From Podarcis liolepis (lineage: Eukaryota), in the NCBI GenBank assembly GCA_965112155.1, contig OZ218102.1: a DNA stretch of 64,000 bases, one strand, 5' to 3'. The stretch's first letter is position 1, and each line of letters begins with the position of its first letter. Both the position numbers and the translations under genes were made by a program. Shown here one piece after another: positions 25,249 to 62,232 of this stretch. The notes beneath the pieces are model-generated. The model ran no database searches. It saw only the letters and a list, made by a program, of their open reading frames with translations, and was not told the DNA's origin.

Positions 25249-25267
25249 ATGCCCGTCCGCAAGCAAG
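25249..25267 (+). CDS. DLG1: DLG1 beta first coding exon (MPVRKQ-D)
   Basis: gccATG Kozak context, 19 nt, AAG|GTGAGG donor. MPVRKQD is the SAP97 N-terminus. Confidence 0.95.
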
Positions 25268-25500
25268 GTGAGGCGCCGGAGGGGAGGCGGGCGGGAAAGT
25301 TTTCCTCGGCGGGGCAGCCGGGCGGAGGCGGGCGGGAGGGCGGCGGGCAGCCCCGGCCCTGGAGGAGGAGGAGGGGGGGGCCGGCGCCGCTCGGGAGCCT
25401 CTGAGCGCGTGCAGAGCGCGGGCGGCCGCCAGGGAGGAGGGCCGGGTGGCGGCGGCGGCGGCGGCGGAGCCCCCGTTCAGCGACGGTGTCCCTTTTGCAG

Positions 25501-25632
25501 ACACGCAGCGCGCCCTGCGCCTCCTGGAGGACTACCGCGCCAAGCTGAGCCGGGCGGACGAGAGGCAGCTGCGGAGCTCCGTCGAGAGAGTCATCGGCAT
25601 CTTCCAGAGCAGCCTCTTCCAGGCTCTGCTAG
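25501..25632 (+). CDS. DLG1: DLG1 L27 domain exon
   Basis: ttttgcAG acceptor; [44 protein letters not shown]; 132 nt; ends at a non-canonical AG|GCGAGT donor. Confidence 0.92.
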
Positions 25633-26094
25633 GCGAGTATCGGGGAGCTGGGGGGGGGGGAGGGAAGAGGGCGCCTGGAGCCGCGGGGACACACGGAAAC
25701 GGAATGGCCTTGGCTGCCCTCCTGCATTTGCAGCACATGCACTCAGTTTGGCAAGTTCCTGTGTCTAGACAAACTTGGCTACTCCTCCTCTGCTTGCCCC
25801 TGACTCGAGATCATTTATGAGCAAGTTTAAAAGGCACAGTTTCTGTATCTCCCGTTGGAAAAGTTTCACTACCATTTAGCCCACTCCTAATCCACAAAGG
25901 GCCTCTCCTCTTAATCCATGATTGCTAGGTTTACTCAAAGGTCTTTGAAGAAGTATCTTGTCAAAAAATTTTAAAAGTCAAAGTACACAAGGACAGTCAG
26001 ATCACCTCTGCCTGCCTCCCTGTTGATGCTCTTGGAGAGAGCAGAGTTTGTGAGACAGACTTTTTCCTTGCAGAAGCCTGTTGCTTCCGCTTCC

Positions 26095-26925
26095 TAGAAT
26101 AGAATCATAGAATTGTAGAGTTGGAAGGGACCCCCAGAGTCATCTAGTCCACCCCCTGCAATGCAGGGATCTCAACTAAAACATCCCTGGCAGTTGGCCG
26201 CCCAGCCTCTGCTTAAAAACCTTCCAGGAAGGTGAGTCCACCACCTCTTTCCATTGTCAAAGAGCACCCGCCCTGTGGAACGCCCTCCCGTCAGATGTCA
26301 AGGAAATAAACAACTATCTGACCCTGTTTAGGGAAGTTTTAAGGTTTGACATTTTTTCGTGTTTTTAATGTTCCGTTGGGAGCTGCCCAGAGTGGCTGGG
26401 GCAACCAAGTCAGATGTGCGGCATACAAATAATAATAAAATAATTATTACTATTAATGTTAACTGTCAGAAAGCTCTTCCTGATGTTTAGTTGGAATCTC
26501 CTTTCTTGTAACTTGAAACCATCTTGTTCCCTCCTCCATATGACAGCCCTTGAAATATTTCCTCTCAGTCTCCTCTTTTCCAGGCTAAACATACCCAGCT
26601 CCTTCAACTGCTCCCTATAAAGCTTGGTTCCCAGACCCTTGATCATCTTGGTTGCCCTCCTCGCACACATTCCAGCTTGTCAGCATCCTTCTTAAATTGT
26701 GGTGCCCAGAACTGGACACTGGACTCCAGGTGGGGTCTGACCAAGGTGGAATAGAGTGGGATTATTACTTCCCTTGATCTGGGCACTCAACTTCTGTTGA
26801 TGCAGCCTAGAATAGCGTTAACATTTTTTGCTGTGGACTCACGTTATGCTTGTGGTCTACCCCTAGATCCTTTTCACATGCACAACTGATAAGCCAGGTG
26901 TCCCCTATCTTATGTTTTCAGTCAT
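26095..26925 (-). mobile_element. CR1 LINE 3' fragment interrupted by an L2 3' end (~26264-26455, + strand)
   Basis: Minus-strand RATKMIKGL...[13 protein letters not shown]...ERRFQLNIRKSFLTV, with a TAGAAT tail at the left. The nested piece 'ctgtggaacgccctccc...gcccagagtggctggggcaacc.agtcagatg...aataataataaa' is an L2 terminus. Confidence 0.85.
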
Positions 26926-27346
26926 TCGTGTTACACTGGCTGCTTTCCAGTCCTCAGGTGTGGAGGCTGATCTCAGTTAAATTTTTCTGTTAGAAGCTTA
27001 GCAATTTCACATTTCTTTTCCATGGGAACTCTCAAGTAGATGCTAGAAAGCCTGGAAAGGTTTTCTCATTCTAAGAGTTTACTGCCCCCCCATCTTGTAT
27101 AATTGGCTGTATATCCTAAAGTTGTGCTTTCTTTACAGGCTTTGTAGGTTCTGCCACTGACAGTTAGCATGTCTCTTTGTGTGTGTGCCATGTGGCGCTG
27201 GTGTTTTTGCTCACAAGATGCTCCCTTATTCTGATGGAGATCTGATTATAAATTGAAGGTGGGAGGAAGATCAAGTAGAAAGCAGCAACTGTATACAGCA
27301 TCTCTTCTGAAAATCAAGTGCTGAACCATATTTTCTCAATCTCCAG

Positions 27347-27513
27347 ATATTCAAGAATTTTATGAAGTGACTTTACTTGACAATCCCAAAAGTGTTGATC
27401 GCTCAAAGCAGATTGAGTTTGTACAGCCTGTGAATACATGGGACTTCTCCAGCCTTCCAAGCACAACAGTGACTTCTGAAACACTGCCAAGCAGCCTTAG
27501 CCCAACCACAGAG
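27347..27513 (+). CDS. DLG1: DLG1 beta exon 3 (end of L27 + Ser/Thr linker)
   Basis: ctccAG acceptor, GAG|GTATGA donor, 167 nt. Encodes [56 protein letters not shown]. Missed by the ORF track. Confidence 0.96.
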
Positions 27514-28541
27514 GTATGACTTTAAAATGTTTGCTCTGGCTCTTGAGCCAATGGGATGGCCATTCTTAAATCTAGATCTCCTGTACAGACTTGTGGTCAG
27601 CTTGACAGTAAATCAAAGACTGATGGTTGCCAAGCTTGTATCCTTGTGTGGCAGGGAAGCTGCATTCTTTTTCTGTTTGGGCAGTGGGCTGGAAACACCA
27701 GAGTTGGAAATGGGGGTCAGGTAGGGTGTGCCCACCACCCCTCACTTCTTCCAAGTTCTACAGTCTTCCTGTTTCTCCATACAGAAGTCATTGAAGAGTG
27801 AACGGTTGTGCCTCAGTGACTAGAAATAGGGCCATGTCTGTGGGGAACCCAGGCTTATGAAGCTTGCTAGTTGGTGGAATTTGAGGAATGCTGCTGTCCT
27901 TCAGTTTAATCAACCTACAAAACTCTCTGAGTTTTTGTGGCATCAAGAGATAACAGTATGTAATAGTTGTTTGTTCCAGTGGAAATGTCCACAAGAGTAC
28001 CTTGTCATCTGTTGCCCCACTGAGGTTATGGAGGGATGTGGAATGTTCTGTGTGTTGCCAAAGGTGGAAGTGAGCAATCTGAAAAGAAGTTGTAAAACAA
28101 AGGCACACACATTTTTGGATTTTATTGTTTGCAGTGAAAGCTCACTGTGTCATCCGGTCTCTCTGTGTTCTTGGGCAACAGCATGTCTTCATTATTCAGC
28201 CTGCCTCTGTTTTCCCCGTGATCTTTCAAGACCTTCTTAGAGAGGCAGCTGGTTCCAGCTGCACGTTCATTGCACCTAGTCCTACCCTATCCCTGCTTGG
28301 ATGGTCGAGTGTGCTTTGCCTTTAGGATGTAGGAGTCCTCCTGAACTAGCCCCTGGTGGCTTTCTTCTAGGGGTCAGCTTAAAAGCTGCTCTTCCACGTT
28401 TTTGATATTAACTTCCAGGTTGATTTTAACTTCAATTTCAAGTAAAATCATCCCCTTTTGTACATCCTGGTTTGCCCCCAAATGTTTCTCAGCACAGAGG
28501 AACCCAGGATACCTCCTCCCTCCTCCACTGTATCATCCATA

Positions 28542-29467: not shown

Positions 29468-29592
29468 TACAGATAGGTAGCCGTGTTGGTCTGCCATAGT
29501 CAAAATAAAAAAATTCCTTCCAGTAGCACCTTAAAGACCAACTAAGTTAGTTCTTGGTATGAGCTTTCGTGTGCATGCACACTTCTTCAGAT
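29468..29592 (-). mobile_element. Penelope-like pLTR fragment (copy B) with hammerhead core on the minus strand; 13-bp TSD
   Basis: TGTGTTTTTGTGT at 29455-29467 and 29592-29604. Reverse strand reads ATCTGAAGAAGTGTGCATGCACACGAAAGCTCATAC. Confidence 0.85.
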
Positions 29593-32312: not shown

Positions 32313-32342
32313 ATGGACTGCCTTTGCATTGTAACCACCAAG
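32313..32342 (+). CDS. DLG1: DLG1 alpha-isoform first coding exon (MDCLCIVTTK, palmitoylated C3/C5)
   Basis: gcaATGG context, 30 nt, AAG|GTAAGA donor, phase 0 into the 43044 exon. Peptide identical to the alpha-SAP97/PSD-95 N-terminus. Confidence 0.95.
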
Positions 32343-36732: not shown

Positions 36733-39109
36733 CTGTTGGCTGCTTTGATTTCAATTAGAAAAGATGGCAAAACCATCTATGCATTGGTATTGTGCTGGTT
36801 TGGATGATTGTGAGCAAGTCCTTTGGACAAGCGGATGTTTGCAAGGCAGCCATTGACTTGCCTTGCTGAAGTGGGAGTCTTTGTCCATCGCATTGTTAGG
36901 CAAGACAACCTCTTAATGCGCCTCAAATGCATTCTCTGGGTGCGCCTGGCGGGGTGGGTCTTGAGGCATCATCCAAGAAAATGGGCTGAGAGCTTGTGAT
37001 TCCCCACCCCCAACACTGTATGGACCCAAGGACCACATCCTGCCCCTTTTATGCCGCTTGCCCAGGTTGGCTAAATCTTGGAGAGCCTGTCTGACTGTTA
37101 TGTTATTTTAGAAAGCAGGCCTTCGCAGAATAGGTATGGATGAACTCAAATGGAAACACACCAGGCATTTGAAAAAAAGATCTGCAGTGTTCCTATTCTG
37201 AGGGCAATTAGTCTAAATCATTTATTCTAAAACCACGTGGAATGAACCGCCTGCGATGTTTGTGAAAATGATACACACATTAGCTGCCAGTTGTTGTGTA
37301 CTGGATGTGGCCCTCCAGTCCATCACTTGGCTTCCAAGGTGTTCCTGAAGCTGAAGAGGTTCCCTGCCGGAGAGAGAAGGAATCCCACGCAGTTCAGGTG
37401 TGGTCCTTCTGCCCTCTCTGCTGTGTGTGAACCTGGCTAGGAGGGCTGGCTGAGCCCAAGTAAAATAGCTGGTCCCGGAATAAAACAGCCATGCTTGGAC
37501 CAAATAAGTTCTGCCAGTGCGCTCTGGGCTAAAAAAGCCCTCCTCCTCCTGGGGGAGGAGCGCAAAAGAACTAAACTAGCCCCTCAAAGCGGGCCCAAAC
37601 TATTCTGAGAAGTTAGCAGTGTAGTGGGATGGAACTTCCGCCTGTTTTTACCCTTTCCACGGCCACACTGTCCTTGGGAGGGTTGTGTCTGTTTTCTAGA
37701 CTTGGTGATCAGAGGGGGTACGGGGCACCACATTGCCTTGCCCTGGCTGCTTCCCTTTGTTTTTGTTCCAAAGCGGTGCAAGCGGGACCCTGCATCAAAA
37801 GTGCCATGTGCTGATAGATGGACCCCCCTTAGGCGGCAGCATAACGGTCAGATGAACGGTCAGCTCTGCCAGTTCCAGGTCTAAGTGCAAGAGCGTATTG
37901 TTTGAGGGGACAGATGAAACAATAAATCCTCTCTGTTGCAATTTCTTTAATGCAGCAGTGAATATTGCTATTGGATTGCCCTTTTGTTTCAAATCCTTAT
38001 CTAGTCTCAGCAATAAATGCTGCTGCCCCAAAGCCATTGTCCAGCCCTGCAAAACTGGCTGTAAGGCAGGATAGATTTAACAGTACCCTGCAGCGCTAAT
38101 AACTCTTATTGCAGTCTGTGGGTTGGAAATGAAGGCGCAGTGGTGAGAAGGGAAGCCCCTTTTATTCTGATGGGAATGTCTGGGTGATTCATGGCTGCCC
38201 ACACTGATTTCAGCTTTTCATTCCTGGTGCTGATTCACTGTGAAGCATTCCACGTATGCAGGCTGCAATAATTAACATTGTTCTTTGCTACCCACTAACA
38301 CTGCTGCCCCTCCGTTGCCCTGCCATTGCAATGAAACCTCTGCTGATACCCGATGTCTCCGTTCACCAATGGAAATGGGCTCCAAGAGAGACAGCTTCAG
38401 GATGCCCCATATATTGGTTGACTGTTCCAGGTGCCAGCCCTCCCTGCCTTCCAGGTAGACAGAAGTAACAGACAGGACCAGGAAATGTGCAGCGAGTGGC
38501 TGGATATTTTGAAGTTGGCTGCATTTACTTGGATTTCCAAGTTCCTGCTACAGTCTGAAGTGTGCTTGCTGGAGCCTCTCTCTCTCTCTCTGGCGTGTGC
38601 GTGTGTGTGCCCCCTGCCATGATGATGGGTCGGTTGCTGCAGCGTTTTGCCCCTCCCCCTCAGCATCTGGCATCAACGGAGCAGTGGCTGCAGTCAGATG
38701 AGCCGCTTTTATCCTTATGGAGGAGGTAGCGGAGCTTACTTTGCCTGCAGCAGGTGGAACTGCCTCGTCCCCTTCTCTCCCTCCCTCCCTGCTCCCCTCC
38801 CTGGAGATTTTTGGCCAAGAGGATTCCAAAAGGGAGCCCTTGCAGAGTTCTCTTCATGCTGGTGCCTTTTCTCTAGCTGAAGAGGGAGCCACCCTCTTGG
38901 AAAGGGACACATGGACCTCTTCGGCTCGACCCCGCAGGCGGTGGGGACTTCTGCCACGAGAAATAATTCCGTGCTGTTTTTCTGTCTCAGCTTTCTGTTG
39001 AGAGGATCATGGACTCACACGTCCAAGGCAGGCAGCAAGCCCTTCTTTCCCAAAGCATTCTTCTTGAATCTCGGTTGCTGAATGATGGAGGTGTCCTGGG
39101 TCTGAAAAG

Positions 39110-39211
39110 ATGTCTCCTAGCACAAAAAACGTGGATTGCTTTTCTCCCGTGCTGTGCCACTGCAAAGTAGCATGCAGCAACAACACTGTCTCTTTAATGT
39201 TTGGATGCAAG
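39110..39211 (+). CDS. DLG1: DLG1 alternative first exon, PSD-93-alpha-like (MSPSTKNVDCFSPVLCHCKVACSNNTVSLMFGCK)
   Basis: aagATG start, 102 nt, AAG|GTGGGT donor, phase 0. Aligns without gaps to the recalled DLG2 N-terminus MSPVVKDPDCFTPMICHCKVACTNNTLSLMFGCK. Confidence 0.85.
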
Positions 39212-42200
39212 GTGGGTCCGAACGGGGTTTCTGGCGAACCTCTGGCACATCTAAATAAATTAGCAGCATCTCCTTGTTAATGGGATCTGTAGCAATAGAA
39301 TTATGCCATGGGATGGGATTAAGTCATATGCTTTTGGTGACGTGCTGGGGGCAGGCAGGCAGGCAGTGGCGATCTCTGCTCGGTCGGTGTGCCTTGTGGA
39401 AGAGGGATATTGCACACGCACCCTCTGCAGGAGAACAATTAAAAGGCAGAGTAGAAAAACCTCCGGGGAAGGCTGAAGCACTGCCCTGGCAAAGCACGGC
39501 ATGTTTTTGTAGTTACCGCTTTTACTTTGCAATATTCATACCCTGTTCTTTTCTTTATGGGGCTCCTGGGGTGGCTTACAGTAATAAAAAGGTATCTACA
39601 GCAGGAAGTAGCTATTCTGTGGCTATCAAGGGTTCTGTCTGTCGGAATGGAAGCCTCCTGAGGTCCCTGGGGGAACACCTGAGGGCTTTGGGGGCTGTGA
39701 TGGGGCAATGAAGGGGGCTTAGTGACCTTTAATGCAAAGCATCCATTTGGATTGACTTGATGGCTTTTCTTTCTTCCCTCCTTTTTAAAAAAGTGAAATG
39801 CATGTTATTATCCAGTATTTGGGGGTTTCCTCATAAGTATGTGGGTTGAGATACCCCAGGCTGCGATTGGTTTCCAGATACTTGAGAGAGAGAGCAGCTG
39901 AAGCATGCCTTTTGCCTCTGAGAGGATCTTCAGGCAAGTTCAGTTGACCCAGCCAGGGTTCTTGAGGACTGACTTGCAGCTGAAATGTTGCAGGGAAAGT
40001 GCAATGATTGGAGGACAGCTTTGGGGTTGGCACTGGGAGGGAAATGGGGGAGAGGGTTGCAGGAAGGCAATAAAGAGTTTTCAGTGACGGCAGCTGCCTC
40101 ACAGCTGCCCCTCTTGGGGAATGGCAAAAATGTTCAGCTCCATTCTTTTTTAAAAATCTTCCTGTGGGGTGCATGTTTCATGTGAAATCTCAGCAGTTTG
40201 TATATTAGCACTTCCAACTTCCAGTGTGGCCTGCAAGTACCCAGGGCTAGCCGGACCCTTTGATTTAGTGGCTGAATAGCCAGTCCCTTCACAGAGAGGT
40301 GTGTCTGGCACCTGTGTTGTGTAGCTTTTGTTATATGCTGAAGAGGCACATCTTTGCCCTGGCTTTTGACGCCTGAGACATATTTGGACCCACCCTATGT
40401 TTTTGACCATGATTTGTTGTAACAGATTTTAATGTTGTGTTTTAAAATAGTTGTAACCTGCCCTGAGACCTTGTGGAAATTCTGGATGGCAGCTAAGACT
40501 TTCCCTACCACTCAGGCTGTGTTTTGCATGCTGGTTGTGAGCAGAGGAGGTTTAATATGCCAGGAGAAAACTTGCCCTGGAGAGGTTATAGATGCTGCCT
40601 GCAACTTCAGATTCGTGTTTCCTTCTCTTCCCCACCAGTGACGGAACAATAACTTTTGGGGGGGGGCACAAGTTGAGGTTTCATGATGTTTCCCCTTCCT
40701 CAGCATTGGCCTGGGGTGAGGTGCAGCGCATCTCCACATTCCATTGTGGTTTCCACAAGGCTGCCAAGGTTTGTCTCTGCATATGCTCCCAAGCACTCTG
40801 TGTGCGGGTATCTTTTTCCAAAGTACCATTTTAAACTTATTGGTTCCAGAGGCTGGTGAAGCCTGGGGAGTCCCAGTGGTGCTTGCAGGTATGTTTGTAG
40901 GTCCCCTCCCCAAGTTGTTTATTGCTGTTACTCCTGAAGCATATCCAGTCCATGGGAAATGATTAAAATGCTCTGTTAATGGTGCTAACTGTGGTGGTTG
41001 AAGGACCAGGCAAGCCAGATCCAAAATGGAGAAGCTTACTTAGAAGTGCTTATTTCTGGTATGCTTTTTGCACAAGCGGGCTAAGAAATAACATGCCCAG
41101 GACATGTGAGCAGTATTCTAGCCTGACCTGCACCAACGCCAGCCCAACTTCAGTGTTACTCACATTTGCAGTATCCTCTGTCTTGGCAGAAAGGAAGAAC
41201 CATATCTTTGGCTTCTGTTACTGGTCTAATGAAACAGTGACCAACACATGGCTCCTAGCTCCAGCTGCTGTTTCCTGAGTGCCAATGGTTGTGCGCCTTT
41301 TACAGTTCTTGTGCAGAACTTCAGATATTTATTCCACCAAGGAGGAGAAAGGTCTCTTTCTCTTCTTCCTCTTCCTCTTGGTTGTCTTCTTTAAATAATC
41401 CCTTGGCTCCATGGACTGATTCTTCCCTGTGACAGCTGATTTCCTCCTCCTGGCCATCTTTTGTTCGCAGAATGATTCAGACTGCTGGGCAGAAGAGGCG
41501 GGAGGGCTGCAAGCTGCCATTTGCCCACTGCACTGAAACGGGTGGGTGAATGCTGGAGTTGGCAGCACTCTGTCTGCAGAGGGAGAACTGGGAGCCGCAG
41601 GGCAGAGAGCGCACTTGAATTCCCAGCGCCTGGCTCTGAACAAAAGGCAGAGTGTGGCCTTTTGTTTGAGTGCTCAGGCAGTCTCCAAGCTGAAACGCAC
41701 AGTAGGGATAAGCTGTGAAGTTTTTCTACACCCAAGCAGTATATAATTTTGAATGAAATTTTATGAAATAAATAAATATCCACTGGCACCCCATTCAGCC
41801 AGTGCCCCCCTGGGTAAGGTGGGATGGGTTGGCCTCTCAACACACACGCAAGCACCCCGCCCCTCCTCAACGATTCGATGGAAAGCCCGGGCCTGCTGGC
41901 TATGCCTAGATGGCCTTGGCGACTGGTCCACCGGGATGCCTTTCCCCAGCATCATTTGGTGCACCAGCCGCGGTCCCTTTGGTTCCAGGATGGCCTCGTG
42001 CCAGGTGTCCCCACGTGAGTCACATCCTGACTCACTTTCCTCGGTGCTTGTGCTGGGTCAAGCAGGGCATCCAGGCTGTTGACCAGGGGCTTGTGGTCAT
42101 GAGCCTGTTGGCTTGGCTCTTCCAGGGGACTCTCTTGGCTCCTGGCTCATTTCTGGGCACAGTTCTAAATGGTGGCTTTAGAAATGGTGGCAGGTGGGTT

Positions 42201-42682
42201 GTCAAAGGCCTTCCTCTTGGCCTGTGAACCTGCCCAGCGTCTTCAGGGACCTTCGCTTGTGGGTGGGCTTTCTCTGGAGAAAACGTCTTCCTTTGTCTCT
42301 CCCCTCTCCCCACCCCACCCTGGCAGGGGAGTTCTCCTGCCATCTTGTTCACTAGCCTGTGGGCACGAGGTAAAATCTGTGTTTCTCTTGGCTTTTGGTT
42401 GTTAATGTGCTAATGGTTTGTTTTTGTCCAAGCTCTTTAGTTTAGGTTATAGAACTGGTTTTCTAATGGCTAAAATGTTTAATGGTGGCTTTTGGTGTCT
42501 TCCAGGATTTCTTTTTTATTTTGCTATTATTTTTTTGTTTTTTATTTTGCTTGAATGTATACTTTTTATTTGGCTTTATTCATTGATGCTTTATTCTGGA
42601 TTGTTTTATTTGATGTTTTAATGTAGGTTGTAAGCCACTTGGAGATTTCTTTCTTAAAAGCATAAAGTAGCATAGAAATGAA

Positions 42683-42684
<2 letters not shown>

Positions 42685-42733
<49 letters not shown>
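42685..42733 (+). repeat. (TAA)~16 microsatellite at the tail of a degenerate L2 3' end
   Basis: Perfect TAA array preceded by 'gttgtaagccacttggag...aagtagcatagaaat'. Confidence 0.9.
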
Positions 42734-43043
42734 TTATGGCATTTTCTGGGATGAGTATGTGTGTCATTTTGACTTAAGGTGTCTGCAGAAAGATGGAATT
42801 TAAATGTCATCAATAAGTAAAAGTGGGTGGTTCTGCATGGGGGGGTGGAGTCTGGCAGGGACTGCACAAGCAGAGGGGGGCAACCTTGATGTGCAACTTG
42901 GGCAGCCTGTGCTGGGATCGTTGCAGAGAAGGCAGAGCTCTCTTGTTGCCGCCTTCTTCCCCTCTTAAGTTGGGGAAGCAAGTTGTGTTGTTGAGGTTTG
43001 CCTTGTAAAACTGGTCTCCTTTTGAACCTTTTTCCTCCCCCAG

Positions 43044-43214
43044 AAATACCGTTCTCACGATGACGATGACACGCCTTCGCCAGAGCACGGCTCCCCCCGG
43101 GAAACTCCCAGTGAGGCAGCAGCTCCAGAGCTTGTGCAGGTTTCCGAGAAGAGCCTCTCTCAAGTTGAGAGCGTCCATGGATTTGTGTCCCACTCTCACA
43201 TTTCGCCAGTCAAG
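43044..43214 (+). CDS. DLG1: DLG1 common N-terminal exon (MAGUK_N_PEST region)
   Basis: ccccAG acceptor, AAG|GTAGGA donor, 171 nt. Encodes [57 protein letters not shown]. Confidence 0.95.
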
Positions 43215-44439
43215 GTAGGAGGCGTGCACATGTTTCAGAGCCTCTTTGGGTATGATGGGTCAGGTGTCCGGTGAAAAGCTGCATGCCTTCTTCCTGCTGT
43301 AAAGATTTCATGTTCATTCCAAGTCCTACCCTTATGTCTTTCTAATTGGTGGGTTCTCATCATAACATGAAGTTCTGACGTGTTATTCATTCATTTCCTA
43401 CTGCATCTCTGAAGCAAGGTAACCGGTTCTTCCTGTTTGAGGAATCTAAGGTTTCACTCTCTCACAAATCATTCTTTTGATGGCTGTGTAGGATTTTGTC
43501 TGCAAATTCTTAGTCTATTTCTAGGTTATGGCATGAAAACCCGAGTATTCCTCTGTTGTGAGATTTTTTTATTCAGTTGAGTTTAGGGTTGAGAGCAGGG
43601 TTTCCCAACAATGTCCAAAATTAGCCAGGTGTCAGGGGCATTTTATAATTGGCTATCAGCTACTTACGAGTAAGTGAAGATGCCTGGGTACCAGGATGGT
43701 GCCTGACACTTCCACTATCTGGAGGTGCATGCCTGGGGATCAGTGGATCTGGACTGTTTTCACATACTAATACCCCATCCTGTAGAAATCCAGTTGTTAT
43801 CTTTTATCTGCACAATCAGAATGAAAGCAAAATGCTTTTTCTGTGCAGCCTGAGCAGGAACAGTGAATGGCTTACATTTTGCCTTCACTTATCCCACCCC
43901 ACAGTTTCTCTGATAATAATAATATGTGACCTTAAAAGAGGGGTGCTCAGAACAACACACACAGGAACTGGACTGCTGGCAAATTTTGAGCCTGCATGAC
44001 CTGGCACTGACCTTTTGTATCATGGTGGCAGCAGTGGGAGTGGCGTGGGTTTCTGAGATTCAGGAGTTCCCTGCTCAGCACAAGGTTGCCTTGGGTGGCG
44101 AGTTCTGGGCAGTGGGTTCAAGAGGGCTGTGGAGAAGCTGCCAGTGGGGCTGGAGGACAGCTGTGAGAAGGGCGGGACCCTGAAGCAGTTCTTTCAGTAC
44201 CAGGGAGCAGCAGCTGGTGGGCTGTTTTTGAAAAGCGGAATGGCTCGTGGGCTGGGATGGAAGGACCGTGATGAACCAGACAAGAAGAGTCCTTGTTTAA
44301 ACAACAGAGAGGTGGCTGGTGGCTGGTGTAAAAGCAGTTCAGGAGAGGGGAGGCTGCCATGGGAGGTTGTGGTGCAGCTGGCACAGTCCAGATGGTGTGC
44401 TGGGAGGCTGGGCATGAGCTCCTCAGGCCATCCTCCCCC

Positions 44440-44562
44440 AACATGCTGCCCTCCAGCTGCAACTGGTCTGCAACTCCCATCATCCCTGAACATTGACCGT
44501 GGTGGGTGGGACTGATGGGAGTTGTAGTTCACCAACTGGGGGGCACCAGGTTGGGGAAGCCC
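44440..44562. mobile_element. Palindromic non-autonomous DNA element
   Basis: Inverted arms caactcccatca / tgatgggagttg, a common squamate MITE form. Confidence 0.6.
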
Positions 44563-46600
44563 GCCTTAGGAAAGCAGCTGCACCCTCAGCCCCCTCCCTA
44601 TTGCTACCACCTGCAGAATAGGGTTGCTTCTCTCAAGCTGCTTCATAGGAATGCATGTGAAGTATGTGGAATGATGCATCATGCAAAATTCTTCTTGGGC
44701 TTTGGGCACACCCAGTGTTTGAAACTCCCGTTGTTCTAGGCGCATTTTGTGACAGGGAATTTCATTAGCTTGAGCAGTTTCTGAGCTCTGGGTACAAATA
44801 CTGTGCCTAAGACCTTTTTCTGCCTCCCCACTTCCAGCTACTTTCTGAAGACTGGAGAAGAGACCCTCTTCAGAATATTAGGGAGGGGGGCACGCGAAGG
44901 ACGAGACCATGTGAAAAATGAACATAATATTTTAGCTGCAGTTCATTCATTTTCAGCTTTGTATTCTTGTTATAAAAAAGACATTCCGTTGACATTCCGT
45001 TGTTGCGCCCTTTAAAGGTCCCTTTAGCTCCTGGCTTTCCTATCTCTGTTTCTAGCCCTGCACACATTGGGGCCTGAGGTGTGCTAAAGGAGAGGCTGAA
45101 TGAATTATTTGCCTCTGCCATCCTCACAGTCAGAAATGTAGTGCAGATAGGTGAGCCTGGACTCACTTTGGCAGGAAGGGGGCTTGAAGAACTGAGGCAG
45201 ATCGCGGTGTCAGGCAGGGAATACGGGAAGCTGGTGTCAGAACTTGGAAGTAGCCCACAGCAGTCAATGGCCGATGCCTCTTGGCCCTTCCTTCTCCCCA
45301 GCCCTGCCTTGAAACACACCCTCATGCCAGCCTCTTCTTACCTGAACCAGCCCAGGGGAGGATGGGACTTGGCAGAGCAGGTCTCCCAGCTCCAGAAAGA
45401 CAGGAAGACGCAGCCTGCTCAGGGATTCGGAGGGGGGGGGGCAGCTGCCTGTGTCTGCCTTCCTCTGCTAGGAGCAGAATCCTCAGGGACTGGGAAGCGG
45501 CTTAAGGCAATGGAATGTGGACTGTGGGTCTGCAGAGGCTGGCTGGCTGGCTGAGGAATTCGAACTCTGCTCTGTGGTGGTTGTCCCTCTGAACAGAAAT
45601 CTTTGGCAGTGCATTTGCTTTTGTAATGGCCTCTAGGGGGAGATGTTGCAAAGGAAGACCTTGGCCACAGGCCTCTCAGGTTATCCAAATACTGTTTTGG
45701 CTGCATTCACATGACCATTGATTCCCCTCTCATGGCCTTCCCCAACTGTTGATTTCCATGTTAGGTTTGAGTTTTCACACAAGGTAACAGCCACTTCCAG
45801 AACTATAGTGGAATATAGTGGATCATATGGAATCAAATGCTAAACTCGCTCTATTATTTGGAAACAATTTTTTTCTGGAAGCAAATATGAGCACTAAGCT
45901 TGCACTCCACTACGATAGTTTGAGAAGTGGTTTTTACGTTGTGTGAAAACTGAAATATAATGTGGACTTAACAGTTAAGGAAAAGTCATGAAAACGAAGT
46001 AAACTGGCAGGTGAATGCAGCCCTGTTTGTTTGTTTGTTCAGTTTCATTCCAACCTTTCATCTACGCAGTCCCAGGATGTGATACATAATAAACATCAGT
46101 CAGCAGTGGTGCCATCTGTATGCTGATAATAGTCAGCACAGTTTCTGTGACATCTGTGGTGTGGCCAGGGAGACGCGCCTGGACTCTGTGGTGGGCTGGA
46201 TGAGGGCCAGCAAACTGAAGTGGAATTTTGACAAGGCCAGAGGTGATCTTGTGGGTGGGTGGGCGGTTCTGGGGCCTGGGAATGAGAGAGACTGCCTGTT
46301 CAGGAGGGGGGTGCTCCACCTGGAAGGGGCACCCATGCGCCCTGGGGCTGCTTCCAGAGCTGGCGCGGCTGGAGGCTTGGTTGCAGCCATTCCTATGCCT
46401 GGAGCTAATAACAGATGAATGGGTAGGCAGAGGAGGTGTAGCGCACGTCAGGCCGTCCAGGCGAGGCAGAGACTGTGGAGACATGTCCCCCAGCGCCACT
46501 CTCTGAGACCAGGTCTGCAGGAAGGATGGGAGCTCCAGCGCTGCCCTGCGCCTCCCAAGCCACACAGACAACTGATCCAGAAGCAGACTATGATCTATGG

Positions 46601-46790
46601 CAGTGCTTCCCAATTGTTGGTCCGCGGACCCCAAGGGGTCCGCGCAACCCACCCAGGGGGGGGGTGTGTGTGGTGCCATACACATAACAAAAACTACCAG
46701 AGAGATCAAAATTTTAAAAAGTAGGGGGTCCATGGCTTGACTTTTGAAAAACAGAGAGTCTACAATGCTTAGCTAATTGGGAACCAGCTG
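46601..46790. mobile_element. hAT-type MITE with 8-bp TSD, inserted in an L2 RT remnant
   Basis: TSD ATCTATGG at 46593-46600 and 46791-46798. TIRs CAGTGCTTCCCAATT / AATTGGGAACCAGCTG. Host reads TIDHSLLLDQL...SFLQTWSQRVALGD on the minus strand. Confidence 0.82.
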
Positions 46791-49700
46791 ATCTATGGTG
46801 ATCTGCCATGTCTATGATGATGATCCCCCCCCCCCCGGTATGAAGGGTGTGCGCTACAAGCATTGCTTTGGGTAGTAAATGTTCCCCAATGTAAACCCAG
46901 GGTCAGCTTGGGATCTGTTTGCAAAGCACTGATGAAGAACAGGTTCCAGGTGTTTTTGTTGGCTGGAGGTGAGGCATCTTTCCCCTCTAGGTGGGAGCAG
47001 AAGGGTCTCAGTGGGCGGCTCCTTGACCTGGATAACTGGGCAAGAAAGACTCTTCACTTGGGAGCAGCATAATCTGTAGATCTGAAGTGGGCAGAACGTG
47101 TAACAGACGGAAGTTGGATTAATCAAGAGGCACTAAGGGGGGGGGGAGGCAGTGCCCGTCTGTCCGTCCATCACAGCTGCTGCTTGGGATTCTGCTTTGA
47201 GCTGGGCTGTTTGCTTCTCCACTGCAAGACGTTTTTGGAGCAACTTGTAATAAGGCCACCATGTTCATTTCAATGTGGCATGCTCAGAAGATGAGCAGGA
47301 GGATCCTGAAGAGTGTCCGGGAGTCCAGGCACTTCAATCTTCATATTTTGGTAGGTGAACTAACATAGCCTAATGATGGGGAGATACTTCTGATGCATAG
47401 AAAATGTGTCTCTTCCTTTGGCATTCTGCAATTTACAAATATTTAAACCACGCTTATTACGGGGGTGTTTTCAAGACCAGAGGTGGGGAGATCCCTGGAG
47501 TCAGATTCAGGAAGATTTCGGGCATCTTCAGGTGGTCCTTTGCTTTTGTACAGTAATGCTTGTGCACGTCGTTGCTTGGTGAGGCAGCTGGATCCAGAGC
47601 TTGACTGATGCTGGGCTTCTCTGGTGGGGCTGCCAAATCTTCCAGAGCTCAATCTGTTTGTTCCTAGGCCCAAGCCACATCTTCCCCCAGAGGTGCTGTT
47701 TTTTTGCTTTGAATGTGTGTGGTTTTTTTTTAAGAAAAAGAAGGAATGATGCTTAATGTTCCACATCTCTGCCATTCAAGGATTGGAAGATTTATTAGCC
47801 TTTGTGTCCTCTCCCCTCTTGAGTGCATATACCTGATGCCTCTACTCTTTATTTGAGTGTGGACCCAGGCAAGGGGATAGGTAGAAGCTTTTACTAGGAA
47901 TTGGGGTCATCCGATAAAGCCAACTGGCAGGCAACGTGCTTGATCTGAGCCCAACACAAAACTCGCAGGATATGCAATGGGATCTCCCCTCCCCACCCCG
48001 TGAGTTCCCTGTGGTGGTGGTGCTTCCGTCCAAGGGCCTTCTTCCTTGTCTCCAACTCTTTCTCCCTCCCACATTCTCCTTGCTGTGATCCACTGGTCAG
48101 GAGAGAAAGAAAAAGAAAACCAGCCCTTCCAGACAAGATGTAGAAGACAGCGCCAAAGAGATAAACCCACAGCAGAAAAAAACAGCACTGCCAAAATGTC
48201 TTTAAAATGTCAACAACTGTTTTGAAAACTAGAAGCCCTGGGGAAATAAGGTCTTCAGGTTGCACTGGAAAAGACCACACCCAGGGCTGCACCCCCTCCT
48301 TGGTCTCAAGTCTTTGTTCTTCTACCCGTGGTGCCCATTGCAGCTATGAAGAAGGAGCAGGCCATTTTGCACGTGGCTTCAGTGGCTGGTGGGTCCCATT
48401 GAAGTGCTTGTGCTCCCTGACTGGTTTAGCCTTCCTGGCTGAAGCCCAGCAAAAAGCTTCTCTGCTTAACACACATCCATTTCAGTAGCATTTGGACAAC
48501 ATCAGTTATGTGGGGTGGAAATTTTGGAATTTTTAGAAATGCACTGTTTCCTGAAATAAAATAGGAACATAAATAAATGAACATAATGCCAGCCATCCAG
48601 CATGCTACAGTTAGTGTGTTGACCGTATTCAGTGCCTATATATTTTCTTTAAAATAAGGTAAGGGTATGACATTGAATCATAGGGCTGGAAGGGACCCCA
48701 AGAGCCATCTAGTCGAACCCCCAAAGCTGTCATGTAAGTATTCCAATAAAAATAGTTTCCAAGTAAAGCTTTGAATCTGTTTGCTGTGTCACTGTAACCT
48801 CACTGGCAAAAGCCAAACTTTCTTCTCCTGCAACTTCTGTATTGTGGCCTCCAAAGGCAGCCCCCCCCTGTTCCACCTGCAGGACCCCCCCCCCCCACCA
48901 CAGTGGAGAAGTGAGAGGCCCACCGCATCCTCTGGCCCCTCAGCCATCCCTCCTAGGATTGCTCTAAGTAGGCTAAGTCTCCCCCCCCCGCCCCCCGGTT
49001 TGGATTCCAGTAAAAAATCCCCACAGCTTTTACCTGTGATAGCTTCTGTTTCTGTTTTGACAATGTTGATTAAAGTAATCTTAGCTTGGTTTCCTTTGGG
49101 ATGTCCCCATGTGATACGCGAGAGAAATAGCTTGATACTTCTGCAAAGAGGAACGTGATATTATTGCTCATGTAGTAATGTTAATCATCTGTTAATTACA
49201 TTGTCCCTATTACGGTATAGCTTTTGCATGTAAATAAATTCTATAAAAAGAAAGCAAAATCCCCCACCTCTCAGATTGCAGCAAAAGTCATTTATTTACA
49301 TTCCCTCTCAAGGCTCCTTGTAGGAGCCTCACATGTCATTGGCTTCTGTGAAGACTGGATGTCATTTTAAACCAAAATAAATTAAATCTTGCACATTAAG
49401 CCAGGCCCAAATTAGAGCAGAGGTTCTTATCTTTGATGCTGACTCGGCCGCGGGCTCAAGTAAGGAAGACACAGACACGCCCAGGGCCTCACCTTTCTCT
49501 CCTGACAGTCACTAAAGGAGAAACTTTAAGAGTTAAAATTAATTTTGATTGCATATTGTTGAGACGTTGGAGGATATTAAATCACTGTATGCTGCTGTTA
49601 GCCAGTAAGCGGTTTTAGAGGTTTGCTGCTGCTCTGAGTTGATAATTTCCCAGCTTCCTGCAGGTTTTTCCATGTTTACTTGTCTGTTGAGTAAGCTCTG

Positions 49701-50270: not shown

Positions 50271-50285
50271 ATATTCATGTATATA

Positions 50286-52448: not shown

Positions 52449-52691
52449 ATGAATTACATTTTTGGAAACAACACTCTGCTCTACTCGCGCACCAGTCGGG
52501 GCGGCAACACTGGATCCGGCCATAGCTCGGGAGGGCCCAAGCAGAAGCTGTGGGCAAAGAAGGGCTCTGGGGATGCCCTGCCTTCCGAGGAGGCCGAGAC
52601 TTCGCGCTGGCAGCAGATTGCTGCCTTCTTCACTCGCAGGCATCGCTTCTTCTTCTTTGACTGCATCTCTGTGGCTGCCAGCTCCAGCCAG
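52449..52691 (+). CDS. DLG1: DLG1 alternative first exon (MNYIFGNNTLLYSR...CISVAASSSQ)
   Basis: gagATG start, 243 nt, CAG|GTAAAG donor, phase 0. Matches the recalled human DLG1 isoform start MNYIFGNNTLLYSRGSRGGNT...RWQQIVAFFTRRH. Confidence 0.92.
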
Positions 52692-56500: not shown

Positions 56501-59500
56501 TGGTTAGTGTATGAAACATGGAAAGAGCAGGCCTGTCTGGATGCTTCAGTGCAGGGGGCAGCAAGAACGCGCATCGCCCCCAGGGATCCCTGTACTCTGG
56601 GCCCTGGTGGCTGCTGCTGAGGAGTTCTGCCAGGTGCTGCTCTGGAGTCACCCTGCTGGCGCCAGTAGCGCCCGTCTCACAGGCGCCCAAACACCAAGGG
56701 ACAAAAACGCCCCGCAGCAGCTTGATGCCGTTATTTGTGGCAGGGATCCTGCAGCATCCATTGTGGGCAGTTGCAGCCCAGTAGCTGCGGTTGCCACTGC
56801 AGAGTATGAAAGCCTTTAAGCACTCCAGTGGCTTTCAGGAGAAGCTTTTTGGCAATGACCCACCACGGAAAGGCTGAGCCAGGGATGAATGGGGAGGATT
56901 AGCAGGGTGGGGCAGGGTTAGCTGGGGTGGATGGTTAGGAGCCAGCAGGTGTCTTGCTGTCCCACAGGCAGAGATGCAAAATTTCGGTGAATAACAAACA
57001 AACATGCTATTGCAAAAGGCTTGGGAAACTCTTTATCTATGCACGTGGAGCAGTTAAATCTCAATTTGGTCTGGCATTTTTCTCCAAGGTGTTGCTTGAG
57101 CTTAAATGCTTCTAAATTGCAATCAGGAAGGCTTGCTGTGTGTTTAATTTCAACTCGCCAGCCCTCAACATCCCTAGAAGGGGTGGCTGGAGGAGGAGAG
57201 GGATGGAGATTCTTCCTGTGTGCATCACATTTCCTTAGTAAGTAGAGCTCTATTTAGCTGAAGCTGAAAGCCACTTGGATTTTCAATACTGTATTGTGAA
57301 TAATTTGGTATCACCTGCAAATTTGGTCACCTCTCAGCTCACCCATAACTCCATGTTGTTTGTGAAAACTTTGAAAAGCGCCCGTTCTTATCTGTCTTCA
57401 TTGTGAGAGCTACTCTGCTATCATATCACATTAGGTGCCGAGTTCTGGCAGCTGTGTAGCACAAACAAGATGACGGAGAAACAAGAGGGGGGTGTATCAG
57501 ACTGTGCAGCATCCCCCCTCCCCGCAAACAAAGGTTTGCAAAAGTAGGGGGGGGGAGCACAAACTGAGGGCTGGTGTCAACCTGTGTCATCACATCCTAC
57601 TGACGATTGAACATGCTCAGTGTCTTAGAAATCCCGACGGTCTGTTGGTTTATGGGGGGTGGGAATAGAAAACTGGCAGGTGGGTGAAAAGCAAGACTGG
57701 CTGCCTGCACACCAAACAGGAGCATTTTCTTTGGCAACACCTTGTTGTAGATCTCATGCTCTGTTTTGTATTCTTTAACCATTTACCCATTCAAATGAAG
57801 ACTTACCTGCTAATTCCAGGACTGTGAAGGTTGCTCAAGAACCTTCGTCAGGGAATTGGTGGAAACCTTTTGAAAGTACAAGAATTTGATGTCTACCAGT
57901 TCATCTGTCTACTAACTTGCTTGTTGGCATTCTAAAATGACAGTCTGAAATGTTAGTAAGGATTTCCTTTTGCAGAAGCCACGTTGATCCAGCTTCAGCA
58001 AGACTCAAGAGTTGTATCTCACAAGTTTCCACCCTTCGGTCTGGAACAAATATTAAGCTAACTAGAGCTGGGAAATATTAGGTTTTAACATCGCAGTGTG
58101 TCACCAGCCAGACATCGCGGTTTGCTGATAATACCATGATGTTGAAAAAAGCTGCATTGGTCCCATCCCTTGCGGTGGTGGGTGAAACTGCCACATCTCT
58201 CCCTGCGGAGCCGAGGCTCTTTCATCCCAGAGCCTTGCAGGGCCCAAGCCCCCTGCGCAGCTGGGGGGGGGGAGGCTTGCGCCCAACAGCTGAGTGAGCC
58301 AGACCACTCCCCAAGATGGAGGGAGCCCTGATAGGCTCCCTTGGCAAGGCTAGTTCGCCTGCGAGGGGAAGGGGGGGCAAGCAACCTCCTTCTCCTGGGA
58401 GAAAGAGGCCACTTGCTCCCCCCCCCCCCCCAGCTGAGTGAGTCTGGATCCTCCTCCTGCTCTTGTGCAAACAGAAAAATTATTGGGGCTTCCTCAGCTT
58501 GGGAGCAGGAGCAGATTTACGCCCCCCCCCCCGATGACTTGTGTGAACTGGTGGCGGGTCTGGGTTTCCGTCAAACTGCTTGGCTAGTAAAACCACCGTG
58601 GCTCCTGAGTCCCTCTGCCTCCAGCCCAGCCCGGCTGCAGCTTGTTTCTCCCTAGGCATGCTGAGTGCTGGGGGGGGACGGGGACTGAGGAGTGGCAGAG
58701 GTTTCACCTGTGATACAGCGCTGAGTGAAACCCCCATTGTGGTGAGCCCCTCATACCGGTCCTGGGCAATATATCGCCAGGCCTGAAGCTGACCTGCCTA
58801 TAATTTCTTCAGTCTCAAGTCTTACTTTGGCTACTTTCCAGTTCTCTAGAATGTAGGCTGATTTTAGGGACAAGTTATGTAATTTCCTTAGAAGGCCAGC
58901 ATTCCCATTTACATTCTTTAACTCGCAGGTGGATGCTGTGGGGACCTGGTGACTGGTTAACTTTTAATGTCAATAAGCCCTTGTTGGCATGTGGCTCAAT
59001 TTTTTGGGTCTCTCTCTCTCCCCCCCCCCCTCTCTCTCACACACACACAGATTAAATTCCGCTTCTCTCCTTCCCAAGTACTCTGTTTGCTCCCTTGTGT
59101 AATGCTCCATCATCTCCCCGGCTGGTCTCTTGCTTCTGGTGTATTTAAAGACATGGCTGTTGTTTTCATTATGCATCTCTCAGATTTTTTCTGCCTTCCC
59201 ACTCGCTGCCGGGAACTAGAGCAGTGCTTCTTGCCAGTGGTGTCTGTTTGGCAGGGATTGTGTGAGCTGTCAGTAGATTTGAAGAGCCCAGGTTGTGCCT
59301 CAATTCGCCGGCCGTTTCCCAGGGCCAGGAGTGGGGCTGCAGCTTTAGCCCTCTCTCTGAGGTCATGTGCTTTCCCCAAGCCAGTGCTTCTTGCAGATGG
59401 GTGCGTGAAAAGAAAGCCCCGTGGGCAAGCGCCTGCCTGTGTGTGAAAAGGCTCCATGCCGCTGGGACACCTGCACAGCCGAGTGCCTCAGCCATGTGGA

Positions 59501-60003
59501 GCCCCTACTCACGAGCAGGCACTTGCAAATGGGGCTCCTTTCTCGCACAGCTGTGTGCAGCATGTGGCTCTGGGTGGTGTGTATGCGTAGGCAGCTCTAC
59601 GGTGCCAGGTGAGGCCGAAAGGACAGCCCTCTGCTCCCCACACTTAGGCCATGGAGTCTGGAGAGGGTCGCATCCTGCCCTCTTGTGTGCAGTTGTGTAC
59701 GGAAAGGGCTTGGGGATTCTCCAGTGATGGATTCGTTGTCATGCAGACACACAACCAATGCGGAAGCACCAGCAGATGTTTCCCGTCACGTCTTTACAGT
59801 ATATCACAGATGTCATCCTGAGCCACCAAATTGCCCCTCTTCCTTTCTCCAGACAACGACTTCTTCTTCTTCTTCTTTTTCTTCCCCTGTAATGTTGGAT
59901 GAATAATAATAATAATATAGGTTGCCAGTTCATGTTTTTAGGTGAGGTGGTGCATCATATTTTACTTCCAGTTTTAAAAGAAGCCATAGGAGATGCTTCC
60001 TTG

Positions 60004-60016
60004 GTTACCTAGCAAC
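60004..60016. promoter_or_regulatory. RFX X-box motif with nearby CRE-like site
   Basis: GTTACCTAGCAAC fits GTNRCC-N-RGYAAC; TGACGTGA at 60070-60077. Confidence 0.4.
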
Positions 60017-60477
60017 TGTGTGATATCCCACCTGGGTCCCCACCTCCAGTAATTCCTTTTAGCTCCTGCTGACGTGAAACCAGCTGGAATCAGACCCTCC
60101 TGCGCTCACTTTCCTCTTGTCTCTTAAGTTAAGGTTTCAGCCAGGGGGAAAGTGCCTTATCTGGGACCAGTTGATGACCTTCTGTGGGCCTTCCTCTTCT
60201 CCCTAGTAAGAGGCAGAGTGAAATCATGTCCTGCTCTGTCTTCCCTCCATTGTAAGGCGCATGGTATGTCCTGTGGCAGATCAGGCTGTGAGCAGCTTGG
60301 CCCATTCAGGGGATACTTGGGACAGGTCTCTTGTCCTGGGGCCATGTGATGAATCCAGAGGCAGCTAATCGTGTGCTCCTTGCTGTGTTCTGCACCTGAG
60401 CTTTGCCAGCTTTTTATTCATGTATCTCAAGGATTTATATGTCCCCTTTTAGGGCATAGCCCTTACAAGATCATATA

Positions 60478-60682
60478 CAGTCGTACCTTGGATCCCAAAC
60501 ACCTTGCAACGCAAACATTTCAGCTCCCGAATGCAGCAAACCCGGAAGTGAGTGTTCTGGTTTGCAAATGTTCTTTGGATCCCGAACGTTCGATGCGGCT
60601 TCCAATTGGGTGCAGGAAGCTTCTGCAGCCAATTGGAAGCCGCGCCTTGGTTGTCAAACGTTTTCAGAAGTTGAACAGACTG
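60478..60682. mobile_element. Internally deleted Tigger-like MITE
   Basis: TA|CAGTCGTACCTTGG start; 'aacccggaagtgagtgttctggtttgc' core shared in reverse with the 30019 copy; ends GACTG|TA. Confidence 0.72.
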
Positions 60683-61917
60683 TACCATGATGAGGAAAGT
60701 TCCATTAAGATCCAACAGAATGGTCAGACCAAAAGAATTCTGTGTCCTAAGAATGCCAGGAGGAAACAGCAACCTAAAAACTTTGGGGAAGGAGAATCTT
60801 CAGGTCAGGAGCCATCTTGGATTAAGCTGTTCTGCAGGCGTTGGTGTCCAGTTTTCTTTCTCCTGTTCCCTCACAGTGGTGGCTCTGGCTTGCCTCAGAG
60901 GAGGTCTTGGAAGTCACACATGACCCCTGCTTCCCAGGAAGGGGCTGAAGAAATGGTCTGCTCCCCAGGGAGTCCAAGAGCTGATAAACCCAGGGAAAGA
61001 GGCCCCAGAGTGTCTCAACGGTGGGCCCCTGCGCCTCTCCGCTGCATCCACTGCCCCCTGAATTCTGAGCTGTCGAGTGAGGTGGATGCAGACCCTCTTT
61101 CTAATCCACAGAGCCCGTCTCTAAGGACTAGTTCCCACCCGGCAGCCCCTTGAACCTCCACGACAGAAGCACAGCAGCCTTTGGAGGTAGGGGATCAGAG
61201 TTGTGGCCTTCTCGTACTCTACCACTCTTTGTCTTCAGCAGCTGCAATCCACAAGATTAGCTTGGGGGCAGGATGGTTTGGGAGGTCTCTGGAGTCCTCC
61301 TCACCTAGCAACTGGAGGCCACCACACCACACACTCCCTCACTTGGTAGCTCCTCCAGCAGGGACGCTTCCTCCTCCGCCTCCTTCGCCCTCTCTGAGGG
61401 GGGCTTTTCCTTTGCTTTGGAGAGAGGCAGTGTGTTTCCAGCAGTGCTGGGGGGGGGGTTACAGCTTTTGGGTATCTTTGTTGCCTCCTTTGCAGGGCCT
61501 GGAGGCAGCATTCCATTTGAGCGCAGAAGGGCTGGCCTGGCCTTGGCAAGCAGACCTGGCCCTCCCCAGCACACCTGCAGCCATGTGATGTACTGATGAG
61601 CATTTGCCCTCATGCTCAGTCGTGGCGCAGGGTCTCAGGCTTCCTTGCCGTGTTGGAGTTTGCGGCATAAAGGCACTGTGGACGTGCCAGGTGACCTTTG
61701 GCGCAGCTTCTCTTCCCTCTGCAGAGCATTGATTCTGTTTGCCTGGCAAAGGGGCCGGCAGCGTGTTGCCCAATGGGACGCCTTCTGTCTCTGGAGAGGG
61801 CGTGCAAAGCCAGGCTTCTGCTGGACTGGCCGGGAGAGCATTTTGCTCGGCTGCCTGGAGGAAATGTGCCTCTGCCTCTCGGCTTCTGCCTGGGCTCCCT
61901 TTTAGCTGGGCTCCTGG

Positions 61918-62232
61918 ATGGCCGCCTGCTCCCCCCCACGCAAGTGCTGCTGTGGGGCTCCTGACGGCTGTGCAGTGGGGCCTCTGAGGCAAGCTGGCTC
62001 TGCCACCAAGGCCTGGGCAGACGCGGCACCTCCTCCGGGGCTCCAGCCCCAGGATGCAGCCGGGCAGCCGCCTTGTGTTTCAGCCACGCTGCCTGTGGCA
62101 CCCAAACACAGGGGCAGGTTCACCAACCTGCGCGACAGTGTGAAGAAGAGCCCCACCAAGAGCCCCGCCAAGGTGAGGGCTGCCAGCGGGTGGGGCTCCG
62201 ACAGCTCCTGGTCCCATTGCTCCTCGGAGAAG
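61918..62232 (+). CDS. DLG1: DLG1 alternative first exon, PSD-93-delta/SAP102-like; two in-frame donors (62172, 62232)
   Basis: MAACSPPRKCCCGAPDG...SATLP...LRDSVKKSPTKSPAK|VRAASGWGSDSSWSHCSSEK|. AAG|GTGAGG and AAG|GTAAGC are both phase 0. Motifs match the recalled DLG2 SQTMP and LWDSVRKSPHKTSTK. Confidence 0.72.

Follow-up and report, generated by a model that had tools for sequence, protein, structure and literature searches.

The 64,000-nucleotide stretch of Podarcis liolepis DNA analysed here (the window; contig position C5:103788001-103852000) contains the 5' end of the gene DLG1 of a lacertid lizard, in which six start modules were recognized, each likely with its own promoter. Five of the six types have homologs in collinear order in the paralogs DLG2, DLG3 or DLG4 and were likely inherited from a single vertebrate Dlg gene that preceded duplication, a reading drawn from sequence comparison to which we assign a probability of roughly 80%. 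The genome compared is that of the same lizard, with its four DLG loci, from which stretches around the paralogs were fetched. Coordinates above 64,000 extend past the end of the window, and the database gene models of other species cited below are predictions, not experiments.

DLG scaffolds are a standard example of duplicate genes that diversified vertebrate synapses, and the differences between them are mostly ascribed to their N-termini. If the reading is true, the paralogs diverged by dividing existing promoters and not by inventing new heads, unstudied isoforms are predicted in non-mammalian models, and annotators are shown where missed exons may lie. Overlooked first exons are of consequence: developmental disorders have been associated with the deletion of two DLG2 first exons that had earlier lacked annotation (PMC5518101). 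That DLG genes use alternative promoters is already known, and most of the pieces described here exist as unnamed database isoforms. The map across paralogs, the epsilon exon of DLG1 and the connection of the SAP102 head with PSD-93 delta were not found in the literature searched by title and abstract, a scope outside which lie the primary J. Neurosci. papers that may treat homology across paralogs.

Start modules of lizard DLG1

The preliminary description of this locus had listed five alternative starts, and the ATG codons and open frames at 25249, 32313, 39110, 52449 and 61918 were all confirmed, but the count was one short, since a sixth ATG-initiated exon ending in phase 0 lies at 47261-47350. 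All features of the gene lie on the plus strand. The most upstream module encodes L27 and comprises three exons: a first exon of 19 coding nucleotides (25249..25267; MPVRKQ plus one nucleotide), which ends in phase 1 and has an equivalent phase-1 micro-exon in lizard DLG3 at C21:3863976; a second exon of 132 nucleotides with a GC donor (25501..25632), which matches the L27_1 family (PF09058) at an E-value of 2.4e-18 and has paralogous exons in DLG2, DLG3 and DLG4; and a third exon of 167 nucleotides (27347..27513). Together they sum to 19+132+167 = 318 nucleotides and end in phase 0. The statement that all exons end in phase 0 is accurate for the MDCLC, MSPS, MNYIF and MAAC starts and for the shared KYR exon, but not for the first L27 exon. 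Directly upstream, positions 24750..25248 form a CpG island (CpG observed/expected 0.88, GC 0.79, against a background median of 0.27) that is the putative promoter and 5' untranslated region of the L27 (beta) isoform. As separate observations on L27 exon 2, the intron that follows it (25632/25633) has a GC donor in DLG1 and a GT donor in the three paralogs, and a broken partial copy of the exon, with a stop codon and similar upstream intron sequence, lies at C2:118252717-118252803 on the minus strand (L081:7717-7803) and is probably a duplicated genomic fragment.

Two further starts precede the KYR exon, as described previously. The alpha (alpha0-type) first exon encodes MDCLCIVTTK, with Cys3 and Cys5 (32313..32342; donor 32342/GTAAGA), and the alpha2-type first exon encodes 34 residues, MSPS...CHCK...FGCK, with Cys10 and Cys16 (39110..39211; donor 39211/GTGGGT). 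The sequence upstream of the MSPS ATG (39026-39109) aligns to a 30-residue extension of a lungfish model and carries two in-frame stops in the lizard, and a short upstream open reading frame (ORF) begins out of frame at 39082. The shared KYR exon (43044..43214; 57 residues), which starts directly after an AG acceptor at 43044 and ends at donor 43214/GTAGGA, encodes the opening half of the MAGUK PEST domain (a PF10608 match at E 2.9e-17 over profile positions 1-55) and has paralogs in DLG4 and DLG2. Downstream of it, two starts had been reported, a number that rises to three with the 30-residue epsilon-type exon MFISMW... (47261..47350), which was found with the epsilon exons of the paralogs as queries and is the first start after KYR, in a GCCACC-ATG context and with the phase-0 donor TTG/GTAGGT. 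It is followed by the MNYIF first exon (52449..52691; 81 residues), defined by its ORF and phase-0 donor (52691/GTAAAG), and by the delta-type first exon MAAC...CCC...NLRDSVKKSPTKS (61918..62232; 105 residues), which is supported by DLG1 models of other species and ends at donor 62232/GTAAGC, with a second phase-0 GT at 62173.

The exons I1A (66088-66177; L001:5088-5177), I1B (67564-67617) and VNG (70319-70369) lie just past the end of the window, and thus a phase-0 acceptor is available to every start downstream of KYR. Judged from position and from the gene models of other species, the L27, alpha0 and alpha2 starts would splice to the KYR exon, while the epsilon, MNYIF and delta starts would splice to I1A or I1B and lose half of the PEST segment. 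I1A itself has a weak donor (CAG/GTTTTT) and two possible acceptors 6 nucleotides apart, and is 3 codons shorter than that of turtle.

It is hardly credible that the unfamiliar starts are random ORFs, or cassette exons used internally, instead of first exons. In favour of such a reading, the delta ORF reaches further upstream in the shark model P0002, and the alpha2 model of lungfish (P0008) has 30 extra residues. However, every non-L27 ATG of lizard DLG1, five in all, is preceded at 4-20 codons by an in-frame stop, the initial Met is mostly kept at the same place in orthologs and paralogs, and the literature treats the counterparts in DLG2 as first exons that carry promoters (PMC5518101; PMC6389146).

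Counterparts in DLG2, DLG3 and DLG4

Four DLG loci are present in the genome; besides DLG1, contigs C4 and C14 were identified as DLG2 and DLG4 by the best single-domain PDB match and C21 as DLG3 by named proteins. On C4 (plus strand), DLG2 shows L27 at 93097794, MDCLC at 93232393, alpha1 at 93373871, alpha2 at 93465193, KYR at 93542370, epsilon at 93594274, delta at 93652192, I1B at 93698224 and VNG at 93714246; this locus was fetched whole from KYR to PDZ1 and, upstream, as about 36 kb in pieces. On C14 (minus strand), DLG4 shows L27 at 3569054, MDCLC at 3555369, an alpha2-type exon at 3509765, KYR at 3490236, an epsilon-type exon at 3478595 and I1B at 3463401. On C21 (minus strand), DLG3 shows L27 exons at 3863976, 3858831 and 3854648, an exon in the KYR position near 3844120, a Cys/His-rich exon at 3825741 and I1B at 3805159. 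The proposal that the layout parallels that of DLG2 was borne out, the exon order in DLG2 being the same as in DLG1 and not a different one, the outcome named beforehand as speaking against it. Moreover, the order is identical across all four lizard loci and the mouse Dlg2 map, with DLG3 and DLG4 holding complementary subsets.

In supplement 3 of PMC6389146, the mouse Dlg2 order is given as beta, alpha0, alpha1, alpha2, exon 5, epsilon, delta, gamma, exon 6 and exon 7, exon 1 has 132 nucleotides, as does lizard L27 exon 2, and C10 and C16 are entered as palmitoylation sites of alpha2. The cysteines listed for mouse Dlg2 (alpha0 C3/C5, alpha2 C10/C16, delta C35; PMC6389146) match lizard exon positions. 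Lizard DLG1 resembles mouse and human DLG2 (PSD-93; PMC6389146; PMC5518101) in the order L27, alpha0, alpha2, KYR, epsilon, delta and exons of 54 and 51 nucleotides, in the exon sizes (132/54/51), in the cysteines and in the bypass of the KYR-type exon by epsilon and delta. It differs in that the layout occurs here in DLG1, for which the reviews consulted describe alpha and beta only, in the added MNYIF and I1A exons, and in that no alpha1 or gamma exon was found.

The homology of the individual classes is supported separately. L27 exon 2 is present in all four lizard DLG genes; the first coding exon of the L27 module was not located in lizard DLG4. The MDCLCIVTTK exon followed by GT has three matches genome-wide, one each in DLG1, DLG2 (C4:93232393) and DLG4 (C14:3555369), and none with the reversed control. 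The MSPS exon is alpha2-type by sequence homology, by Cys10/Cys16 and by its location just upstream of KYR; it matches DLG4 at E 4.5e-9 and DLG2 at E 1.4e-7, and the DNA differences among the three copies fall mostly at third positions. Both C10 and C16 are present in the lizard DLG1 exon and only C16 in that of lizard DLG2. An MSPS-type exon also occurs in 4 of 13 candidate proteins, including the lungfish DLG1 model P0008, where it joins KYR.

These comparisons bear on the possibility that the shared exons spread after duplication, by gene conversion or exon shuffling, or converged on short palmitoylation motifs. Alpha0 has only 10 codons, with 10/10 residues identical in the three paralogs, and short Cys motifs can converge. 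Nevertheless, pairwise DNA differences in alpha0 amount to 5-6/30 nucleotides, all synonymous, and synonymous sites differ in a further comparison as well (11-22/66 nucleotides). In addition, the four loci lie on four different contigs, five exon types hold collinear positions relative to one set of constitutive exons, and DLG1 of shark, sturgeon and lungfish already has delta and alpha2. Such later spread or convergence is thus very improbable, and inheritance from a pre-duplication gene is preferred.

The WYAKK-type exon is presumably epsilon, a label assigned by its position in the mouse Dlg2 map. The DLG1 exon at 47261-47350 belongs to this type by homology and by its position as the first start after KYR, and its 30 codons equal the length of the DLG4 counterpart. 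Among 13,293 segments it was matched by the DLG4 counterpart at E 2.3e-5 and by the DLG2 counterpart at E 0.032. In a shuffle test of 23 pairs with 1000 shuffles each, these comparisons reached z 12.4 and 9.4, and the three epsilon pairs overall ranged from 9.4 to 18.9.

The MAAC exon is delta-type by homology to DLG2 delta and by its position between KYR and I1B. Of 543 candidate proteins, 6 contain it; all six are named DLG1 and come from turtle, two sharks, sturgeon and paddlefish, and in these models it forms the N-terminus and is joined to I1A or I1B. A 50%-cluster search with this exon gave 17 matches with a near-invariant core from shark to lizard, including one bird DLG1 model, and cluster members add more sharks and a ray. 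Profile A1, built from 12 DLG1-type delta exons only, recovered DLG2 delta from 13,293 sense segments at E 1.2e-6; the next sense match stood at E 3.6, and 13,483 antisense segments gave at best E 3.9; hhalign gave 94% for DLG1 delta against DLG2 delta. In the shuffle test, four pairs of these two exons reached z 6.3-10.7 (one recorded value for the DLG2 delta test being z 6.5), DLG2 delta against DLG3 exon 1 reached z 9.2, and DLG1 delta against DLG3 exon 1 reached z 8.8 for shark, 5.7 for sturgeon and 5.1 for turtle, with 0/1000 shuffles in every case. Four of the first 12 residues of the lizard DLG1 exon are Cys and none is His, while fish orthologs carry His-x-x-Cys-Cys or similar.

If the N-termini all predate duplication, the SAP102 head, PSD-93 delta and the DLG1 MAAC exon would be homologous to one another. 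The SAP102 N-terminus has been described as unique (bioRxiv 10.1101/2020.10.02.323568; PMC10620527), and its head as binding zinc and not being palmitoylated (PMC10620527). Lizard DLG3 has a Cys/His-rich first exon that occupies the place of delta and shares homology with delta of DLG2 and of fish DLG1. DLG3 has been described as lacking L27, yet in lizards and snakes it has an L27 module further upstream.

This module consists of three exons upstream of the usual first exon of DLG3 (C21, minus strand; L034:3700-3831, L034:8976 and L033:9529-9648), of which the L27 exon scores PF09058 at E 5e-14. With L27-DLG3 as the query, 30 of 31 candidates matched, 17 of them named DLG3 isoforms, all from lizards and snakes, and the squamate models join the module to I1B-VNG-PDZ1. 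One DLG3 exon of the genome shares 98-100% identity with proteins of Podarcis, Lacerta and Zootoca, which marks the organism as a lacertid. A strongly diverged exon at the KYR position (near C21:3844120; L032:8979-9119) is also present in squamate database models. Mammalian DLG3 proteins are described as lacking L27 (PMC7962242), although the figure legend of one review gives SAP102 an L27 domain (PMC6365469), in conflict with other papers.

Age and fate of the start cassette

The L27 class occurs in DLG1, DLG2, DLG3 and DLG4, the alpha0, alpha2 and epsilon classes in DLG1, DLG2 and DLG4, and the delta class in DLG1, DLG2 and DLG3. Since each class spans the first split of the published tree, (Dlg1,4),(Dlg2,3) (PMC4685586), parsimony places all five before the first duplication. 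The idea that the cassette of N-termini is ancestral is therefore supported for L27, alpha0, alpha2, epsilon and delta, shared by paralogs in one order, but not wholly for the full set, since no paralog was found for MNYIF of DLG1 or alpha1 of DLG2. Pruning by paralog is likely as well: no delta exon was found in DLG4 (within C14:3455001-3595000) and no alpha0, alpha2 or epsilon exon in DLG3 (within C21:3795001-3905000). Pruning by lineage is read from the lizard set against published mammalian descriptions.

MNYIF and alpha1 are likely later, paralog-specific additions. When the last 72 of the 81 MNYIF codons were compared with the fetched DLG2, DLG3 and DLG4 stretches, nothing rose above the antisense control, and six MNYIF pairs were not significant in local alignment in the shuffle test. 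MNYIF as a diverged epsilon or delta exon was ruled out (z at most 1.3). A human DLG1 isoform begins as MNYIF does. The alpha1-type exon has one match genome-wide, in DLG2, and was not found in the DLG1, DLG3 or DLG4 stretches; a search of lizard DLG2 with short motifs, a weak test, gave no gamma-type exon. No Pfam family covers the alpha2, epsilon, MNYIF or delta exons.

Several points weigh against an ancestral and functional cassette. Its age is read from the distribution among paralogs. DLG1 epsilon is only 37% and 31% identical to its paralogs and is the most diverged of the three copies (alignment A2), and no database model was found for it, the exon search giving three unnamed and uninformative matches at 0.76-0.77. 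Lizard DLG1 delta has no direct match to DLG3 exon 1 (local z -0.1, global 2.1, missed by profile A1, hhalign 51%), and their link would be transitive, via DLG2 delta and fish and turtle DLG1. The exon at the KYR position of DLG3 is equivalent to KYR in position only (z at most 2.7, with 2.5 for an unrelated control), and three such pairs were not significant in local alignment. None of 17 sequencing runs is recorded as RNA; contigs from four sets guessed to be RNA, placed on 38500-48500, gave no splice joint at the exons MSPS, KYR or epsilon, but they left even the familiar KYR exon without coverage and their depth was mostly on repeats, so that this result points neither way. Low-depth contigs ran unspliced through the epsilon donor, and a CpG island occurs only at the L27 start.

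Part of this evidence, namely the lack of spliced RNA for the starts in a region where KYR was uncovered as well, and the divergence of epsilon, would fit an ancestral cassette of which part of the DLG1 set, mainly epsilon and perhaps also alpha2 or delta, survives as decaying relics that are no longer transcribed in the lizard. The 5' half of lizard delta is also diverged (42-55% to closer relatives in A1), and the weak I1A donor points the same way. However, ORFs, ATGs and phase-0 donors are all intact, epsilon has a perfect Kozak context and 30 codons as in DLG4, and in delta the core hardly varies between shark and lizard. The four guessed-RNA runs contain 0.21-0.28 of the delta-region words, against 0.31 in two DNA-sized runs with the same organism label, which is only a lead. 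Decay of this kind is judged unlikely, and separate promoters for each lizard DLG1 start remain the likely arrangement.

With such promoters, promoter choice would place different targeting heads on one PDZ-SH3-GK body, with or without the first half of the PEST segment. In published accounts, alpha heads are palmitoylated and beta heads bind via L27, with different synaptic placement (PMC6502786; PMC6365469). The L27 head would serve CASK/LIN7 complexes and alpha0 would be palmitoylated at Cys3 and Cys5, both of which are established in mammals; Cys10 and Cys16 of alpha2 are likely palmitoylated by analogy with PSD-93 alpha2. The Cys-rich delta head may act like the zinc-binding, non-palmitoylated SAP102 head; for the basic-hydrophobic epsilon head, membrane or calmodulin binding would be a guess. 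Following the two rounds of genome duplication, the paralogs likely lost different subsets: in the lizard, delta would have been lost from DLG4, and alpha0, alpha2 and epsilon from DLG3, which keeps L27 and delta.

The SAP97 and PSD-95 alpha/beta isoforms offer a close published comparison, with L27 (beta) or Cys3/Cys5 palmitoylated (alpha) starts leading into KYR (PMC6502786; PMC6365469; bioRxiv 10.1101/2020.10.02.323568). Lizard DLG1 differs by four further starts, and lizard DLG4 by two (alpha2- and epsilon-type) and by a full-length KYR exon. The latter (L021:5072-5236, minus strand) is open over the full 55 codons to the donor position common to DLG1 and DLG2 and has an internal GT exactly at the point where mammalian PSD-95 leaves the exon; thus, the short mammalian exon looks derived. 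Among NCBI predicted DLG1 and DLG3 isoforms, those of turtle (P0001), sharks (P0002, P0003), sturgeon (P0005), lungfish (P0008), bird (P0016) and lacertid DLG3 (P0029) carry delta, alpha2 or L27-DLG3 starts, spliced in the manner proposed here for the lizard, but they are unnamed X-numbered models whose paralogs are unlinked, and none was found for DLG1 epsilon.

Taken together, we lean, by a narrow balance, towards a wider view in which a five-way promoter cassette (L27, alpha0, alpha2, epsilon, delta) predates duplication and the identities of SAP97 (L27), PSD-95 (palmitoyl) and SAP102 (zinc-binding head, no L27) are mammalian end-points of differential loss or preference. Reptiles would then still express an L27-bearing SAP102, a SAP102-headed SAP97 and a PSD-93-headed PSD-95, and mammalian DLG1 and DLG4 may hide exon remnants that lack annotation.

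Locus identity and neighbouring features

The attribution of the locus to DLG1 was upheld by the I1A exon, by the BDH1 and MELTF neighbours and by the presence of the three other paralogs on C4, C14 and C21. The L27, three PDZ, SH3 and GK exons of DLG1 are present in order in the window and the downstream stretches L001-L005 (tblastn), and the coding span covers about 76 kb, from 25249 to about 101046, with the GK exons mapped by tblastn. Upstream of DLG1, 3' coding exons of BDH1 lie at 4167..6709 (plus strand; ORF translations), giving orthology context, and a transferrin-family gene lies downstream. These neighbours are named here BDH1 and MELTF, and the human order is BDH1-DLG1-MELTF. Between BDH1 and DLG1, reverse-transcriptase fragments of long interspersed nuclear elements occur at 17875-18927 (plus strand) and 20065-22746 (minus strand), which are CR1-like and RTE/BovB-like. 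Finally, a trypsin-like protease exon lies near the end of contig C5 (L010 near 799), about 88 kb beyond the window.

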